A DNA stretch of 64,000 bases, from contig NZ_CANMVP010000024.1 of assembly GCF_947501385.1 (NCBI RefSeq), forward strand, positions 11,021-75,020, in the 5' to 3' direction. Shown piece after piece: positions 3 through 9,467 of the stretch; the stretch's first letter is position 1; each line of letters opens with the position of its first letter. The notes under the pieces were generated by a model. It worked only from the letters and a program-made list of their open reading frames with translations. It searched no databases and was not told the DNA's origin. A program made the translations under genes and the position numbers. The stretch is from an uncultured Polaribacter sp. Its GTDB lineage: Bacteria; Bacteroidota; Bacteroidia; Flavobacteriales; Flavobacteriaceae.

Positions 3-764
3 AAAAGTGAAGATACTTTTTTAGTAGGTTATGTACTCTTTGACAAATTAGATGGCTTTGCAGAAGTAAGTGTTGTTGAAAACGCACAAGCACTGATTCA
101 AGGAAAAATAGACAATGGCGAATTAATTGTACCAAAAGGAATCAATTACAAGTTTACAGGAACCTACGAAAACCAATTAAGGGCAGAAAAAACATTGTCT
201 GTTGTTGTGCCATTGGCTTTAGCAATTATCTTTTTAATTCTGTATTTCCAATTTCGCTCGGTAGCCACGTCTTTAATGGTATTTACAGGAATCGCCGTAG
301 CCTTTGCTGGTGGTTTTATAATGATCTGGTTGTATGGTCAAGATTGGTTTTTGAACTTTAACTTCTTTGGCGAAAACCTTCGAAACTTGTTCCAAATGCA
401 CCCAATTAATTTGAGTGTGGCAGTTTGGGTTGGGTTTATTGCTCTTTTCGGAATTGCAACAGACGATGGTGTGGTAATGGCAACCTATCTAACCCAAACG
501 TTTGATAGAAACATGCCAGAAAACAAGAAAGAAATTAGAGCATCGATTGTTGAAGCTGGGGAAAAACGTATTAGGCCCTGTTTAATGACAACAGCTACTA
601 CCATATTGGCATTGCTACCCATATTAACCTCCACAGGACGCGGAAGTGACATTATGATTCCGATGGCAATCCCTAGTTTTGGTGGAATGTTAATCGCATT
701 AATTACTTTATTTGTGGTTCCTGTATTGTATAGTTGGAAAGCAGAGATGGCGGTTAGAAGTTAG
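3..764 (+). CDS. cusA: CusA/CzcA-family heavy-metal RND efflux permease, C-terminal part (5' end outside window)
   Basis: Frame is open from base 3. Motifs GFIALFGIATDDGV and RIRPCLMTTATTILALLP, plus MAIPSFGG, are typical of the last TM segments of HME-RND pumps. Confidence 0.92.
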   Translation, partial: KSEDTFLVGYVLFDKLDGFAEVSVVENAQALIQGKIDNGELIVPKGINYKFTGTYENQLRAEKTLSVVVPLALAIIFLILYFQFRSVATSLMVFTGIAVAFAGGFIMIWLYGQDWFLNFNFFGENLRNLFQMHPINLSVAVWVGFIALFGIATDDGVVMATYLTQTFDRNMPENKKEIRASIVEAGEKRIRPCLMTTATTILALLPILTSTGRGSDIMIPMAIPSFGGMLIALITLFVVPVLYSWKAEMAVRS

Positions 765-801
765 ATGTTAGAAATTGGAAGTTGGAAGTTGGAAGTTTAA
801 A
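753..801 (+). repeat. Tandem heptamer array (RTTRGAA consensus, 6-7 units)
   Basis: gttagaa gttagat gttagaa attggaa gttggaa gttggaa gtttaaa; the second unit supplies the cusA stop codon. Confidence 0.9.
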
Positions 802-810
802 AGAAAAATT

Positions 811-1176
811 ATGATAAAATCATATAAAGATTTAACAGTACATAAAGAGGCTTTCTCTTTAGCTATGGATATTTTCTGGCGCACCAGAAAATTCCCAGAG
901 GAAGAAGTGTATTCGCTCACTTCACAAATTGTGCGTTCATCACGCTTTGTTTCTGCTAACATGAGTGAAGGTTGGGAAAAACGGATGTATGAAGCTGTTT
1001 TTAAACAGCAACTTGTTACTGCATTAGGCTCTAATTCAGAAACTCAAGATTGGTTAGATTATGCACTGGAATGCAAATATATAGATAAGAAAGAGTATGT
1101 GGATTTTTCTAAAAAAAATGACAAAATAGGAAAAATGCTGACCAAATTATATCAAAATTGGAAAAGTTATGAGTAG
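811..1176 (+). CDS. Four-helix-bundle protein (23S rRNA intervening-sequence protein / bAvd-like family)
   Basis: SYKDLTVHKEAFSLAMDIF...FPEEEVYSLTSQIVRSSRFVSANMSEG...ETQDWLD pattern. Start moved to ATG 811 because the upstream extension is the repeat array. Confidence 0.88.
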   Translation: MIKSYKDLTVHKEAFSLAMDIFWRTRKFPEEEVYSLTSQIVRSSRFVSANMSEGWEKRMYEAVFKQQLVTALGSNSETQDWLDYALECKYIDKKEYVDFSKKNDKIGKMLTKLYQNWKSYE

Positions 1177-2476
1177 TTTTAATCAAGTAAAGTATGTAAA
1201 TATTTCAATAATATTTAAGAAGCAAAAGTGGTCGGGGATGTTCAATCTTCCAGCTTCTAGCTTCCAATTTCTATTGACCTTCATCATTTTGATTGCTGCA
1301 ACTTCTACAGTTTCCCAAAACCTAAATGATTATATAGAAACATCTATAAAAAACAGTCCAGAAATTCAAAAATTCGAATTACAATATAAGAGAGCTTTTG
1401 AAAAAGTAAACGAAGCGAATACGATTCCGAATACCGAATTTGGTGTTGGTTATTTTGTTAGCGAACCCGAAACCCGAACAGGAGCGCAGCGCTTTAAAGT
1501 ATCTGTAAAACAGATGTTGCCTTGGTTTGGTAATATTACTGCTAGAGAAAACTATATCGCTTCATTGGCTGATGCTACATATGAAGACATCGTAATTGCG
1601 AAACGAAAATTAATGGCTTCTCTATCGCAATCGTACTATAATCTATATGCTAATAAAGCAAAACAAGAGGTTTTAATTGACAATATTCAACTACTTGAAA
1701 CTTATGAAACATTGGCATTAACCTCGCTGGAAGTGGGAAAAGCATCAGCGGTTGATGTATTGCGATTGCAAATGCGTCAGAATGAACTAGAACAGTTAAA
1801 ACAAGTTTTAATACAGCAGTATTTGGCAGAACAAACCAACTTTAATAAATTATTAAATCGCGATAAAGATTTACAAGTTGCTGTTGTTAGAGAGTTAACA
1901 ATTCCTTCAGAAGACTTTGAAATTAATACTAAAAACCTAGCATTGCACCCTGAATTACTGAAGTACGACAAACTGTATCAATCTGTAACACAATCTGAAT
2001 TGTTGAATCAAAAAGAAAGCAGTCCGATGATTGGTTTTGGATTAGATTACATCAATGTTGCACAGCGACCAAATATGGATTTTAGCGACAACGGAAAAGA
2101 TATTGTAATGCCAATGGTTTCTCTTTCCATTCCTATTTTTAATAACAAATACAAATCTCAAACAAAACAAAATAAATTGCAACAAGAAGAGATTGAAGCA
2201 CAGAAACAAGAACGTTTCAACACACTAGAGACACGTCTTTACAAAGCAATAAACGATCGAATTTCTGCAAGAATAAGTTACAAAATTCAAACTAAAAATT
2301 TAAAGCAAGCTGAAAACGCGGAGGAAATCTTACTAAAAAGTTATGAAACAGGAACCATTGATTTTAATGATGTCTTAGATATTCAAGAGTTACAATTAAA
2401 GTTTCAAATGAATCAAATTGAGGCAGTAAAATCTTACTATGTACAAACTTTAAGAATTAACTATTTAACCAATTAG
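1169..2476 (+). CDS. TolC-family outer membrane efflux protein (CusC-like)
   Basis: Helical OEP repeats, SLSIPIFN and YETGTIDFNDVLD motifs, position within the RND cluster. The true start may be ATG 1238. Confidence 0.88.
   Translation: MSSFNQVKYVNISIIFKKQKWSGMFNLPASSFQFLLTFIILIAATSTVSQNLNDYIETSIKNSPEIQKFELQYKRAFEKVNEANTIPNTEFGVGYFVSEPETRTGAQRFKVSVKQMLPWFGNITARENYIASLADATYEDIVIAKRKLMASLSQSYYNLYANKAKQEVLIDNIQLLETYETLALTSLEVGKASAVDVLRLQMRQNELEQLKQVLIQQYLAEQTNFNKLLNRDKDLQVAVVRELTIPSEDFEINTKNLALHPELLKYDKLYQSVTQSELLNQKESSPMIGFGLDYINVAQRPNMDFSDNGKDIVMPMVSLSIPIFNNKYKSQTKQNKLQQEEIEAQKQERFNTLETRLYKAINDRISARISYKIQTKNLKQAENAEEILLKSYETGTIDFNDVLDIQELQLKFQMNQIEAVKSYYVQTLRINYLTN
1241..1275 (-). repeat. Inverted copy of the heptamer array, inside the tolC 5' coding region
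   Basis: ttcaatc ttccagc ttctagc ttccaat ttctatt are reverse complements of RYTRGAA-like units. Confidence 0.8.
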
Positions 2477-2478
2477 CT

Positions 2479-3036
2479 ATGGTAAATACATTACTTATCA
2501 AAAATATGGTTTGCAATCGTTGTACTACAATTGTTAAACAGTTATTTAATAACGAAGGGATTGAAGTTCAAACTATTCAACTAGGAAAGGTTGAAATTAA
2601 AGAAGATTCTAACATAGATATAATAAAGCTCGAAAAATCTTTAAATGCACAAGGATTTGAATTAATTACTAATTCATCTGATGTATTGGTCGAAAGAATT
2701 AAAATATTTTTAATTCAAGAAATTGAGAAAGGCAACACAAACAATTTATTTCCAAAACTAGCTAAAAATTTAGGAAAAACAGATTCAGTATTAAGTAAGC
2801 TTTTTAGTAAATATGAAGGTGTCACTCTTGAAAAATATTGTATCAATTTAAAAATTGAAAAAGTAAAAGAACAGATTGAGTTAAATCAATTGAATTTTTC
2901 AGAAATAGCGTATAGTCTTAATTATAAGAACAGTAGTCATTTGGCAAAACAGTTTAAAATTGTTACAGGAATGTCAATGACCCAATACAAGAACTCCCAA
3001 GATGGGAATAGAATACCCTTAGATAAAATTGTATAA
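2479..3036 (+). CDS. AraC-family regulator with N-terminal HMA-like metal-binding domain
   Basis: N-terminal IKNMVCNRC (MxCxxC) and C-terminal SEIAYSLNYKNSSHLAKQFKIVTGMS AraC HTH. Confidence 0.85.
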   Translation: MVNTLLIKNMVCNRCTTIVKQLFNNEGIEVQTIQLGKVEIKEDSNIDIIKLEKSLNAQGFELITNSSDVLVERIKIFLIQEIEKGNTNNLFPKLAKNLGKTDSVLSKLFSKYEGVTLEKYCINLKIEKVKEQIELNQLNFSEIAYSLNYKNSSHLAKQFKIVTGMSMTQYKNSQDGNRIPLDKIV

Positions 3037-3111
3037 AAATTGAACCCAATTAGAAAAACAAATTTTATGAAGCTAATGTAATTTAGTGGGTTGATATTAA
3101 AATTTATAAAA

Positions 3112-5637
3112 ATGAAACACACCTTTCACATACACGGAATGACTTGCAATGGCTGTCGCAGTCATGTAGAAAAAACGCTATCAGAAGTAGCAGGGGTTTC
3201 TAAATCGTCTGTCAATTTAGAAAAAGCAACAGCAACCATTGAAATGGAATCCCATATTCCTATTGAAACCTTTCAAGAAGCTTTAAAAAATGATGGTGGA
3301 CGATATAGTATTCACAAAAATCCCCACCCAGCCTCCCCAAAGAGGAGAAGTCAGGATGTTAAAAAACATACGAGTAAGAAAAGCCCCCTTGGGGGGTTGG
3401 GGGCTTCTTTCTATTGCCCAATGCATTGTGAAGGCGAAAAAACCTACGATAAAGCTGGGGACTGCCCAGTTTGTGGAATGGATTTAGTGGAAGAACAAAA
3501 CCTATCGACCACTACTGTAGAACAATGGACCTGCCCAATGCATCCGGAAGTTATAAAAGATGAATCTGGATCTTGTCCTATTTGCGGTATGGATTTAGTA
3601 CCTATGGAAGCAGATAGTTCTGCCGAAGAAAAAACCTATAAAAAATTATCGAAAAAATTTTGGATAGCCGTTGCTTTCACTTTGCCTATTTTCATAATAG
3701 CTATGAGTGAAATGATTTCCAATAACCCATTATACGATCTCCTAGAACAAAAACAGTGGAACTGGATTCAGTTTGTATTGTCTATTCCTGTGGTATTTTA
3801 TGCCACTTGGATGTTTTTCGAACGTGCTTATAAAAGCATCAAAACATGGAATCTAAATATGTTTACCTTGATAGGGATTGGTGCAGGAGTTGCTTGGTTG
3901 TTTAGTGTTTTCGGAATGCTTTTCCCTGATGTTTTCCCAATTCAATTTAAAACTGAAACTGGTGCTGTACATGTTTATTTTGAAGCAGCAACCGTTATTC
4001 TAACGCTTGTTTTAATGGGGCAACTTTTAGAAGCACGTGCACATAGTAAAACAAATTCTGCTGTAAAAGAGTTATTAAAACTGGCACCTAACAAAGCTAT
4101 CAAAGTAGTTAACGGTGAAGAAATTGAAGTGAGTATTGACGCTATAGAGTTGAACGACATTCTAAAAGTAAAACCAGGTGATAAAATTCCTGTAGACGGT
4201 AGTATCACAGAAGGTGAAACCACCATCGATGAATCTATGATTACTGGAGAACCTATTCCTGTAAATAAAGCAGTAGATGATAAAGTAAGTAGTGGCACCA
4301 TCAATGGAAATCAATCTTTCTTAATGAAAGCTGAAAAAGTAGGTTCAGATACACTACTTTCTCAAATTATTCACATGGTAAATGATGCAAGTAGAAGTCG
4401 CGCACCCATTCAGAAATTAGCAGACGAAGTATCAGGTTATTTTGTACCAGTTGTGGTTTTAATTTCTATCATAACATTTATTGTTTGGGCAATTTGGGGG
4501 CCAGAACCCGCTTATGTATATGCGTTGGTAAATGCTATTGCAGTGTTAATTATTGCCTGTCCTTGTGCATTAGGCTTGGCAACACCAATGTCTGTAATGG
4601 TAGGTGTTGGTAAAGGAGCACAAAATGGTGTATTGATCAAAAACGCCGAAGCACTTGAAAAAATGAACAAGGTAGATACCTTAATTATTGATAAAACTGG
4701 TACCATTACTGAAGGAAAACCAACTGTTGAAAAGGTAGGTTCTTTCAATGCTCTTTTTAATGAAAGTACCATATTGCAATACATCGTATCACTAAATACA
4801 AATAGTGAACATCCATTAGCAGAGGCGACTGTAAAGTATGGAAAAGAACAAAATGCAGAAATTATAAAATCTGATTCTTTTTCAGCAGTTACAGGTAAAG
4901 GTGTAGAAGCTACAATTCACAACAAAGAAATAGCCTTAGGAAACCCTAAAATGATGGAATATGCAAATGCGAAGATTTCTTCAGAAATGGAAGAAACAGC
5001 ATTGTCTTTTCAAAAACAAGGCAAAACTGTCTCTTTTTTAGCCATTGACAAATCTGTTGTTGGTTATGTCGTAATCGGTGATAAAATTAAAGAAACAAGT
5101 GCAAAAGCCATCAAAGAATTGCAAGACAGAGGCATTGCAGTAATCATGTTAACTGGCGATAATAAAAACACAGCACAAGCAGTAGCATCAGCACTAAACC
5201 TTGCTGATTTTAAAGCGAGCATGTTACCTCAAGACAAGCTTAAAGAAGTAGAAAAACTGCAAGCAAAAGGAAATGTAGTCGCCATGGCTGGAGACGGAAT
5301 AAATGATGCACCAGCATTAGCAAAAAGTGATATTGGTATTGCCATGGGAACAGGAACTGATGTTGCCATAGAAAGTGCTATGATTACCTTAGTAAAAGGT
5401 GATTTACACGGTATTGTAAAGGCGCATAATTTGAGTAAAAAAGTAATGAAAAATATCAAGCAAAACCTGTTTTTTGCATTGATTTATAACACCCTTGGCG
5501 TTCCAATAGCAGCTGGCTTACTATTTCCTTTTTTCGGAATTTTACTATCACCGATGATTGCTGCATTAGCAATGAGTTTTAGCTCAGTCTCTGTGATTGC
5601 CAATGCATTACGATTAAGAACACAATCTATTAACTAA
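3112..5637 (+). CDS. copA: Copper-type P1B ATPase with an HMA domain and two CPMH...CPxCGM metal-binding domains
   Basis: GMTCNGC, TGEP, CPCALGLA, DKTGT, SEHPLA, GDGINDAP and YN...MSFSS motifs. Confidence 0.95.
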   Translation: MKHTFHIHGMTCNGCRSHVEKTLSEVAGVSKSSVNLEKATATIEMESHIPIETFQEALKNDGGRYSIHKNPHPASPKRRSQDVKKHTSKKSPLGGLGASFYCPMHCEGEKTYDKAGDCPVCGMDLVEEQNLSTTTVEQWTCPMHPEVIKDESGSCPICGMDLVPMEADSSAEEKTYKKLSKKFWIAVAFTLPIFIIAMSEMISNNPLYDLLEQKQWNWIQFVLSIPVVFYATWMFFERAYKSIKTWNLNMFTLIGIGAGVAWLFSVFGMLFPDVFPIQFKTETGAVHVYFEAATVILTLVLMGQLLEARAHSKTNSAVKELLKLAPNKAIKVVNGEEIEVSIDAIELNDILKVKPGDKIPVDGSITEGETTIDESMITGEPIPVNKAVDDKVSSGTINGNQSFLMKAEKVGSDTLLSQIIHMVNDASRSRAPIQKLADEVSGYFVPVVVLISIITFIVWAIWGPEPAYVYALVNAIAVLIIACPCALGLATPMSVMVGVGKGAQNGVLIKNAEALEKMNKVDTLIIDKTGTITEGKPTVEKVGSFNALFNESTILQYIVSLNTNSEHPLAEATVKYGKEQNAEIIKSDSFSAVTGKGVEATIHNKEIALGNPKMMEYANAKISSEMEETALSFQKQGKTVSFLAIDKSVVGYVVIGDKIKETSAKAIKELQDRGIAVIMLTGDNKNTAQAVASALNLADFKASMLPQDKLKEVEKLQAKGNVVAMAGDGINDAPALAKSDIGIAMGTGTDVAIESAMITLVKGDLHGIVKAHNLSKKVMKNIKQNLFFALIYNTLGVPIAAGLLFPFFGILLSPMIAALAMSFSSVSVIANALRLRTQSIN
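3319..3406. repeat. GC-rich palindromic element in frame within the copA linker
   Basis: C-rich left arm (aatccccacccagcctccccaaagaggag) and G-rich right arm; aagccccc (3381-3388) and gggggctt (3399-3406) form a perfect inverted repeat. Confidence 0.75.
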
Positions 5638-8876: not shown

Positions 8877-9287
8877 ATGAAGAAAATAATTTTAAGTATC
8901 GCTGTCATCGTAGCGGCAACTTTTACAAGCTGTAAAAACGAAACAAAAAAAGAAAAAGAATCTACAACTGAAGTATCTAAAAAAATGGAGATAACAGATA
9001 CTTCTTTTGGTGTAAGAGGTAACTGTGGAATGTGTAAAAATACCATCGAAAAAGCTGCAAATACTGTTGAAGGAGTCACCAATGCAACTTGGGATGTTGA
9101 TCAAAAGAACATCGCTATTTCTTATGATGCTCATAAAACAAATGCCATGGAAATTCATACAGCAATTGCGGCATCTGGCTATGATACCGAAAAAGTTGCA
9201 GGAAATGAGGAAGCCTATAAAAACTTACCTGCTTGTTGTAAATATGATCATGAAATGATGATGAATCAGTCTGGAGAAATGAACTAA
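8877..9287 (+). CDS. HMA-domain lipoprotein (copper chaperone-like)
   Basis: Lipobox TFTSC; GNCGMCK metal-binding motif; C-terminal LPACCKY. Confidence 0.85.
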   Translation: MKKIILSIAVIVAATFTSCKNETKKEKESTTEVSKKMEITDTSFGVRGNCGMCKNTIEKAANTVEGVTNATWDVDQKNIAISYDAHKTNAMEIHTAIAASGYDTEKVAGNEEAYKNLPACCKYDHEMMMNQSGEMN

Positions 9288-9394: not shown

Positions 9395-9395
9395 G

Positions 9396-9467
9396 TTGGC
9401 CTACAAGGACTCGAACCTTGAATGTCGGTACCAAAAACCGGTGTGTTACCAATTACACCATAGGCCA
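9396..9467 (-). tRNA. tRNA-Gln (anticodon TTG)
   Basis: Minus strand TGGCCTATGGTGTAATTGGTAACACACCGGTTTTTGGTACCGACATTCAAGGTTCGAGTCCTTGTAGGCCAA: 7-bp acceptor stem, GGTTCGAGTCC T-arm, loop TTTTGGT; CCA not encoded. Confidence 0.93.

Follow-up and report, generated by a model that had tools for sequence, protein, structure and literature searches.

A gene for a four-helix-bundle (4HB) protein lies at the junction of cusA and tolC, two genes of a copper/silver efflux operon, in DNA from an uncultured Polaribacter sp. (contig NZ_CANMVP010000024.1). Within the 64,000-nucleotide stretch that was analysed, referred to here as the window, the gene is enclosed by two inverted arrays of a heptamer, RTTRGAA, and gene and arrays together span positions 753–1275. 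We read this segment, with a probability of roughly 0.6, as one copy of a heptamer-armed PF05635 cassette residing in the efflux operon of a low-GC Flavobacteriaceae genome (GC content of the window, 32.7%). Most related 4HB genes carry arrays of the same design, and the same junction in related operons was found in several states, some of them on nearly identical backgrounds. Taken together, these comparisons indicate that the cassette has been gained, lost and replaced over evolutionary time, yet does not behave as an active transposon. We hold the anatomy of the module and its evolutionary history, as described below, to be very probably correct.

The left array consists of seven units (GTTAGAA, GTTAGAT, GTTAGAA, ATTGGAA, GTTGGAA, GTTGGAA and GTTTAAA), which Tandem Repeats Finder (TRF) reported as a repeat of period 7 with 6.4 copies and 86% matches; the right array consists of TTCAATC, TTCCAGC, TTCTAGC, TTCCAAT and TTCTATT (Table 1). 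The initial annotation had described these arrays, had placed the cusA stop codon in the left one and had read the right one as part of the TolC N-terminus, and direct reading of the sequence agrees on each point: the stop codon, TAG at 762–764, lies inside the second heptamer, and the right array in the tolC frame encodes FNLPASSFQF of a TolC N-terminal leader. The start of the 4HB gene, ATG at 811, gives the N-terminus MIKSYKDL as in relatives, in which it is nearly invariant. The tolC open reading frame (ORF) begins at ATG 1169 and overlaps the 4HB stop by 8 nucleotides (ATGAGTAG); ATG 1238 and TTG 1274 are other possible starts, and the mature part of TolC starts near 1316. The arrays had also been proposed to pair around the ORF. 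A repeat finder recovered two arms, 769–801 and 1241–1273, with 439 nucleotides between them, and counting along the 33-nucleotide stem gave 28 Watson–Crick pairs, three G–U pairs, one A–C and one U–U. The predicted RNA fold of 740–1290 is closed by this stem, with a minimum free energy (MFE) of −144.9 kcal/mol (z = −4.66; 0/100 shuffles as good). No second array of at least three RTTRGAA-type units, and no further period-7 site above an equal threshold, was found in the 64-kb window. An Rfam search of 500–1500 returned no match at E ≤ 1, rRNA included. Scanning 600–1400 for sigma-70 promoters and intrinsic terminators gave nothing above shuffles, a result of little weight as the consensus is ill-suited to Bacteroidota. 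A search of sequencing runs found none that contains 1–2600 and no RNA run; for 740–1300 two DNA metagenome runs shared 4–7% of words.

Table 1. Features at the cusA–tolC junction, in window positions.
Feature	Positions	Strand	Basis
cusA 3′ end (RND heavy-metal efflux pump)	3–764	+	PF00873 ACR_tran, 2.2e-40; ORF list
Left heptamer array, 7 RTTRGAA units	753–801	+	Direct reading; TRF
5′ stem arm	769–801	+	Inverted repeat, 33 nt, 85% complementary; closes MFE fold
4HB gene, 121 aa, PF05635 / 23S rRNA intervening-sequence (IVS) protein family	811–1176	+	PF05635, 6e-28
tolC-family outer-membrane factor	1169–2476	+	PF02321 OEP, 9e-43
Spacer, 4HB stop to right array; open in tolC frame (SSFNQVKYVNISIIFKKQKWSGM)	1177–1240	+	
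Right heptamer array, 5 reverse-complement units	1241–1275	+	1241–1273 = 3′ stem arm

PF05635 is a large and widespread family, with structures solved since 2006 and no assigned function. To our knowledge the rRNA intervening sequence is the sole genetic setting described for it, besides its noted kinship to Avd, and among the papers that could be searched none ties PF05635 to inverted heptamer arrays or to heptamer-armed cassettes at operon junctions. The 4HB protein matched the family profile with 97.6 bits (cut-off 33.8) over profile positions 1–105 of 106. A monomer model built with AlphaFold (AF2) from 47 relatives had a predicted local distance difference test score (pLDDT) of 95, with helices at 9–25, 30–55, 61–87 and 93–116. 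In a Foldseek search the top match was 2GSC (template-modelling (TM) score 0.87–0.94, root-mean-square deviation 1.0–1.4), followed by 2RLD and then by Avd of diversity-generating retroelements (DGRs) (TM score 0.74–0.85, with 0.76/0.85 for 4DWL; 8UBB is a DGR ribonucleoprotein). The first two are also the closest solved relatives by sequence (2GSC, Xanthomonas XCC0516, E = 6.6e-5; 2RLD, Bacteroides BT_0352, E = 1.5e-7), and five chains are deposited in each of these PDB entries. Profile and structure thus bear out the earlier assignment of the gene to the IVS-protein and Avd-fold family; with the PF22296 bAvd model the score was 19.4 bits, under its cut-off of 40. The dN/dS of the 4HB gene, 0.03–0.10, is close to the value for tolC and indicates that the protein is under purifying selection.

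Arrays of this kind were found around most related 4HB genes. When species-representative genomes were scanned with the 4HB protein, 80 loci were recovered (relatives are cited below by L numbers), and array statistics were calculated for 84 4HB genes and for 174 control ORFs out of the same loci. Period-7 arrays were present on both sides of 67% of the 4HB genes versus 1.7% of the controls, and an inverted-repeat score of at least 28 was reached by 74% versus 3.4%. Nearly all relatives that are at least 53% identical have arrays of RTTRGAR on the upstream side and of its reverse complement on the downstream side. Around more distant relatives the heptamer is TAGGCAA, CGGTTTT, GTCAGAA or CCAGAGG, and in a second lineage, B, described below, it is AGTGAAA; protein family and heptamer unit change together. 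Relatives within the subfamily of the window's gene (lineage A) that are 53–67% identical to it lie at five other junctions, namely grpE–dnaJ, nadK–mdh, dapD–GT1 (glycosyltransferase), hypD–hypE and pcm–thioesterase. The genes at all five are co-directional, the contexts were confirmed by Pfam, and each context is conserved inside its lineage. Two contigs, L021 and L031, are labelled as metagenome-assembled genomes of Rickettsiales and Bifidobacteriaceae; their Bacteroidota-type cus or dapD contexts are nearly identical to Marinoscillum or Chitinophaga loci, and the contigs are therefore probably mis-binned.

The cusA–tolC junction itself was sampled in ~190 related operons overall, and alignment over these relatives, which the initial annotation had suggested as a way of finding empty sites, did yield empty alleles. 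Most related operons have an empty junction, and about 10% hold lineage A, lineage B, gene-less arms or nested arms. For a census unbiased for cassette presence, metagenomes were scanned with the CusA C-terminus; among the 80 close relatives kept (83–96% identity) out of ~570, 66 were empty, six had arms without a gene, four were type B and one a decayed type B, three were type A, and one held another small gene. In the empty alleles L005–L007 the cusA stop overlaps the tolC ATG. A type A allele, L001, encodes a 4HB protein 83% identical to that of the window between GTTAGAG-type arms, and the type B alleles L002, L004, L008 and L010 encode a 117-aa 4HB protein that is only 23–25% identical, between AGTGAAA/TTTCACT arms. 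In a tree of cusA DNA (114 rows), the minimum number of changes was at least eight for type A and six for the six rows of type B, and 21–23 for all states.

Filled and unfilled alleles also occur on closely matching backgrounds. L136 (type B) and L137 (empty) share ~98% identity across ~2 kb upstream and across 400 nucleotides downstream, and L146 (type B) is 98–100% identical upstream to L149 (arms only), which keeps a degenerate remnant of the 3′ end of the 4HB gene; farther downstream, flank identity turns mosaic. The alleles differ by a swap of the whole segment that begins just past the conserved ‘YSW’ of CusA and ends at the cleavage site of the TolC signal peptide. Simple insertion with target duplication was rejected, as the filled/empty alignments show segment replacement and no flanking direct repeat.

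Among distinct empty alleles, 24/54 have orphan period-7 arrays in the TolC signal-peptide region, versus 5/610 random windows and 3/54 other ORF starts, and two of the empty alleles (L138 and L144) bear a recognisable type B right arm. We read these orphan arrays as scars left behind when cassettes were lost, and as retained because they encode the signal peptide. The idea that all empty junctions form small hairpins was rejected (median z 0.1; 8% beat 95/100 shuffles); a few arms-only alleles, for example L132, do fold as hairpins. In many 411-aa TolC variants (L135, L107, L093 and L091) the signal peptide is coded by runs of TCTTTGT/TCTTGGT heptamers, with four perfect copies in L135, and in L132 a run of this type pairs with an ATAGAGA-type left array via G–U pairs. 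These arrays look like a third, older arm type, of which no gene-bearing copy was found.

In L019 and L080, type A arms and gene are themselves enclosed by type B arms, B(A(4HB)A)B, with nested stems in the predicted RNA fold (z −4.2), and arms are partially layered in L016, L012 and L022. Nested arms are the trace expected from repeated entry at one point. The compound left arm of L012 (Mesonia ostreae, 2365–2490) has a long GGTTGGA/GATTAGA array, a short type-B-like AAAGTGAAAAAC piece and then a GTTAGAG array, an arrangement that suggests the layering of several events. Decay is represented by L154 (2745–3200), where weak arms at the cus junction still flank a type B 4HB gene with 43% identity, frameshifts and stops; this allele is an intermediate toward an arms-only or empty one. 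In three Formosa-like contigs (L184–L186, 346–3905) an intact type B cassette accompanies a cusA called as a piece of 529 aa and a tolC broken into 128 + 365 aa, so that the cassette gene may outlive its host operon there. A gap of 546 nucleotides at the L156 junction (2760–3300) was considered as a further cassette and rejected: the small gene found there has two heavy-metal-binding-domain motifs, CPMKCEG...CP.CGMDL, and is not flanked by heptamer arms, and the junction therefore accepts ordinary genes too.

The earlier proposal of a self-contained mobile cassette that enters operon junctions held in part. The neighbouring genes are unbroken and the whole junction segment varies, as proposed; no evidence emerged for an active mechanism of movement, as neither an enzyme nor a target duplication was found and each lineage stays at its own junction. 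None of the three observations that the initial annotation named as refuting its proposal was made: there are empty alleles, relatives have the arrays, and the arrays are predicted to pair. Relatives of the 4HB protein were found at cusA–tolC down to 62% identity, even where TolC is ~30% identical, and on the 4HB tree nine context groups need just nine changes. A single cus-junction copy, the A-family gene of L169, is of separate origin. The dN of the 4HB gene is 0.09–0.13 while that of cusA spans 0.026–0.146; divergence of the cassette gene does not track that of its flanks, a pattern that suggests exchange of the module between operon alleles. Lineage A has long resided at the cusA–tolC junction across Bacteroidota, where it has been lost repeatedly, with orphan right arrays left in the TolC signal-peptide region, and replaced by the unrelated lineage B; it also occurs nested inside B arms.

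The segment from the 4HB stop to mature TolC (mean 153 nucleotides, right arm included) was compared at 37 distinct loci. It was free of stops in the tolC frame in 35/37 loci, versus 3/37 and 0/37 in the other frames (means of 3.7 and 6.2 stops). The tolC frame is kept open, and the right arm is therefore coding at cusA–tolC, in keeping with the earlier reading of FNLPASSFQF. TolC N-termini mostly consist of a short MK... signal peptide, and a minority are long and rich in F, S, L and Q. In most type A loci the first tolC ATG has a constant position relative to the 4HB stop, and initiation of tolC is probably coupled to termination of the 4HB gene. In the dnaJ and mdh contexts the arms are intergenic and the downstream gene begins past the arm; translation of the arm is therefore particular to the cusA–tolC junction.

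Pairing of the arms was examined in a strand-neutral alignment of 73 distinct loci. G–U pairs outnumbered A–C pairs (197 versus 129, p = 2e-4; 39 versus 22 loci), and since G–U is tolerated only in the sense RNA, this excess gives modest evidence that the arms pair in the transcript. Locus-by-locus compensatory co-evolution of the arms was largely rejected: median complementarity was 36 within loci versus 34 between loci, and an arm's own partner ranked top in only 4/51. Conservation lies in the heptamer unit and not in a locus-specific match of the two arms. A unit that is conserved without such a match, and that changes between protein clades, suggests recognition by sequence, for which a 4HB oligomer is the obvious candidate. 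In L169 the left arm (2760–2870) has grown to more than 10 GTTGGAT copies, and forward GGAGAAT occurs three times right after the 4HB stop (3256–3290); the right arm has not expanded to match, so arrays lengthen by slippage independently on each side.

We propose the following explanation. The module provides the tail and stop codon of CusA and the start codon and N-terminal leader of TolC, and it would be co-transcribed with the cus operon, with translation of tolC coupled to the end of 4HB translation. The heptamer would be kept because something, most simply a 4HB oligomer, recognises its sequence; that the protein binds its own arms is a tentative suggestion, which we would not favour over its opposite. 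Persistence would come mainly from entrenchment in the reading frames of both neighbours. Gain and replacement would be rare, the candidate routes being exchange via the arrays as portable homology, and insertion into an existing hairpin loop or a stop/start overlap. A broader generalisation, which we consider rather speculative, is that PF05635 proteins and their cognate heptamer arrays form a self-maintaining ‘hairpin cassette’ system, which would colonise stop/start overlaps or older hairpin loops, bring a stop, a start and a leader, and then be exchanged between sites via its arrays as portable homology; the cusA–tolC junction of marine Flavobacteriaceae would then be a serially colonised hotspot (A, B, the older TCTTTGT-type scar and the nested forms), and ORF-bearing rRNA IVSs would be the same system in rRNA.

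A number of observations weigh against the explanation proposed here for the segment. On the 4HB tree, 33 of the 34 cus-junction copies (all except L169) group into two adjacent clades, of which one is largely Flavobacteriaceae and the other largely Cytophagia-like, and all sampled type B relatives (78–94% identity) are also at cusA–tolC. No transposase, integrase or reverse transcriptase gene was found in any flank examined, no target-site duplication in the filled/empty alignments, and no relative of either 4HB type in viral contigs. Because each lineage stays at one junction, the patchy distribution could largely stem from loss and from homologous recombination between operon alleles, with no dedicated mobility. 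Covariation of protein and heptamer could come from shared descent alone. The G–U excess is modest (60:40), transversion mismatches are common (193), and a transcription-linked C-to-T bias could contribute. Co-transcription, formation of the stem in vivo and the true start of tolC are, moreover, all points that we infer.

Other explanations were weighed against the same evidence. Chance juxtaposition of two unrelated simple-repeat tracts around a small ORF is a negligible prospect: the AT-rich genome favours low-complexity tracts, but the array pair is the sole one of its kind in 64 kb, and its design recurs around two-thirds of related genes and almost no controls, which already refutes it. 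It is also possible that the module is an IVS-like RNA cassette, in which RNase III would cut the stem, releasing a 4HB mRNA and separating the message of cusA from that of tolC, with this processing as the main function. The IVS of Coxiella, compared below, has a similar architecture, the stem here is long and imperfect and folds with a z of −4.66, sense-strand G–U pairs outnumber A–C, and at grpE–dnaJ and nadK–mdh the arms are intergenic, so that cleavage would be harmless there. At cusA–tolC, however, the loop contains the conserved start of tolC, whose open frame extends across the 3′ arm, and a cut in the stem would therefore part tolC from its start codon, which disfavours RNase III-type excision here. 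The arms also show almost no locus-specific compensatory change, and Rfam has no match for the region; we consider processing as the main function quite unlikely.

Two further readings concern how the cassette came to be where it is. Arms and gene might be an active mobile element at the DNA level, which an enzyme encoded at another locus would move into hairpin loops or stop/start overlaps; the 4HB protein would then serve as an accessory factor in the manner of Avd, for instance to a reverse transcriptase. Such movement would account for filled and empty alleles on 98–100% identical backgrounds, for two unrelated 4HB lineages at one junction, for nested arms, for the A subfamily at five other junctions and for the separately derived A-family gene of L169, and the fold is like that of Avd in DGR ribonucleoproteins. 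It sits poorly with alleles that differ by segment replacement, with no target duplication and not by simple insertion, with flanks that contain no enzyme gene, with lineages fixed to one junction over long times, with viral contigs free of copies and with a bAvd score under its cut-off, and we doubt it. The opposite reading, which we likewise find hard to favour, makes the 4HB gene an ordinary old operon gene: A, B and empty would be ancient alleles reshuffled by deletions and by homologous recombination among horizontally exchanged islands, and the arrays would be slippage-prone repeats without a role in movement. Both lineages are indeed tied to cusA–tolC, flank identity is mosaic farther downstream, 4HB dN does not track cusA dN, and the operon moves horizontally. 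Left unexplained, however, are two 4HB genes 23–25% identical, each with its own heptamer, at one junction, as well as the nested arms and the relatives that are found, with arms of like design, at junctions formed by unrelated gene pairs; exchange tracts would, moreover, need to have stopped at most a few bases from either side of the module, and to have done so in two independent pairs.

Downstream of tolC the window encodes an AraC-type regulator, a copper P-type ATPase, DUF2911 and DUF305 proteins, a CusB-type adaptor and an HMA protein, and these neighbours identify the setting as a metal-resistance cluster. TolC homologues are ~80% identical over many Flavobacteriaceae genera, and the operon therefore moves horizontally. 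A tRNA-Gln gene (anticodon TTG) lies at 9395–9467 on the minus strand, ~110 bp past the last gene of the cluster, that of the HMA protein (8877–9287). Together with the cross-genus identity of TolC, it suggests that the metal-resistance cluster was acquired horizontally as an island with the tRNA as its boundary.

A single junction whose alleles are empty, scarred, armed without a gene, filled, replaced or nested, in part on near-identical backgrounds, amounts to a dense natural experiment, and the series is useful for the study of an undescribed kind of gene cassette. It also shows how a gene can reside harmlessly in an operon: the upstream neighbour receives a stop codon, and the downstream one a signal peptide and a leader that is translated. 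Array binding, stem cutting and cassette gain are open to direct testing in cultivable strains, among them Mesonia ostreae T-y2 and Aequorivita spp. for type A, Polaribacter sp. MSW13 and Formosa maritima for type B, Winogradskyella epiphytica CECT 7945 for the nested form, and also Marinirhabdus gelatinilytica.

The nearest element described so far is the ORF-bearing IVS of 23S rRNA, known from Coxiella burnetii and from Leptospira. The Coxiella IVS has a PF05635 (S23p) ORF that is preceded by tandem heptamers and enclosed by a terminal stem of 28 bp, and is excised by RNase III; it has been proposed to be selfish or formerly mobile, and its ORF is reported as decaying and probably untranslated (PMC4990558). 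The module described here likewise has a PF05635 ORF in the loop of a long stem (33 nucleotides, as against 28 bp), heptamers that precede the ORF and a similar total length (~430–520 nucleotides). In contrast to the Coxiella IVS, it is located at a protein-coding operon junction and not in an rRNA helix, its arms overlap the coding sequences of its neighbours, and its 4HB gene is under purifying selection (by dN/dS) where the Coxiella ORF is reported as decaying. Excision by RNase III, shown for the Coxiella IVS, is hard to square with the tolC layout. We do not class the module as an IVS, because it lies outside rRNA and because obligatory excision would remove the tolC start codon.

Avd, a pentamer that binds nucleic acid and reverse transcriptase, shares the four-helix-bundle fold; unlike in its retroelements, no reverse transcriptase and no template or variable repeat adjoins the 4HB gene here. 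2GSC and 2RLD share the fold as well, and no nucleic-acid complex is solved for either. The kinship of PF05635 and Avd has been noted previously (PMC10053308), and PF05635 has been reported in rRNA insertions of candidate phyla radiation (CPR) bacteria (2024 preprint). Miniature inverted-repeat transposable elements and insertion sequences differ from the module, which has no target-site duplication, a single copy in the 64-kb window and no transposase in the flanks examined. So do integron cassettes, with their single 3′ attC and IntI/attI, since heptamer arms are present here on both sides and no integrase is nearby.

Tandem heptamers have also been described in Xanthomonas, where GGGAATC repeats of variable copy number lie preferentially between aligned ORFs and are often paired convergently, so that they could fold into stem-loops (Rehm et al., 2015; PMC4692102). 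The arrays described here resemble them in being tandem 7-nucleotide units in convergent pairs between co-oriented ORFs. In that paper the repeats are read as G-quadruplex formers and are not linked to a gene family (PMC4692102); GTTGGAA/GTTAGAA contains no G-tract of three, and a PF05635 gene lies between the paired arrays. What is new in comparison with these systems is an IVS-type gene-in-hairpin module that lies outside rRNA and is built into the reading frames of both its neighbours.

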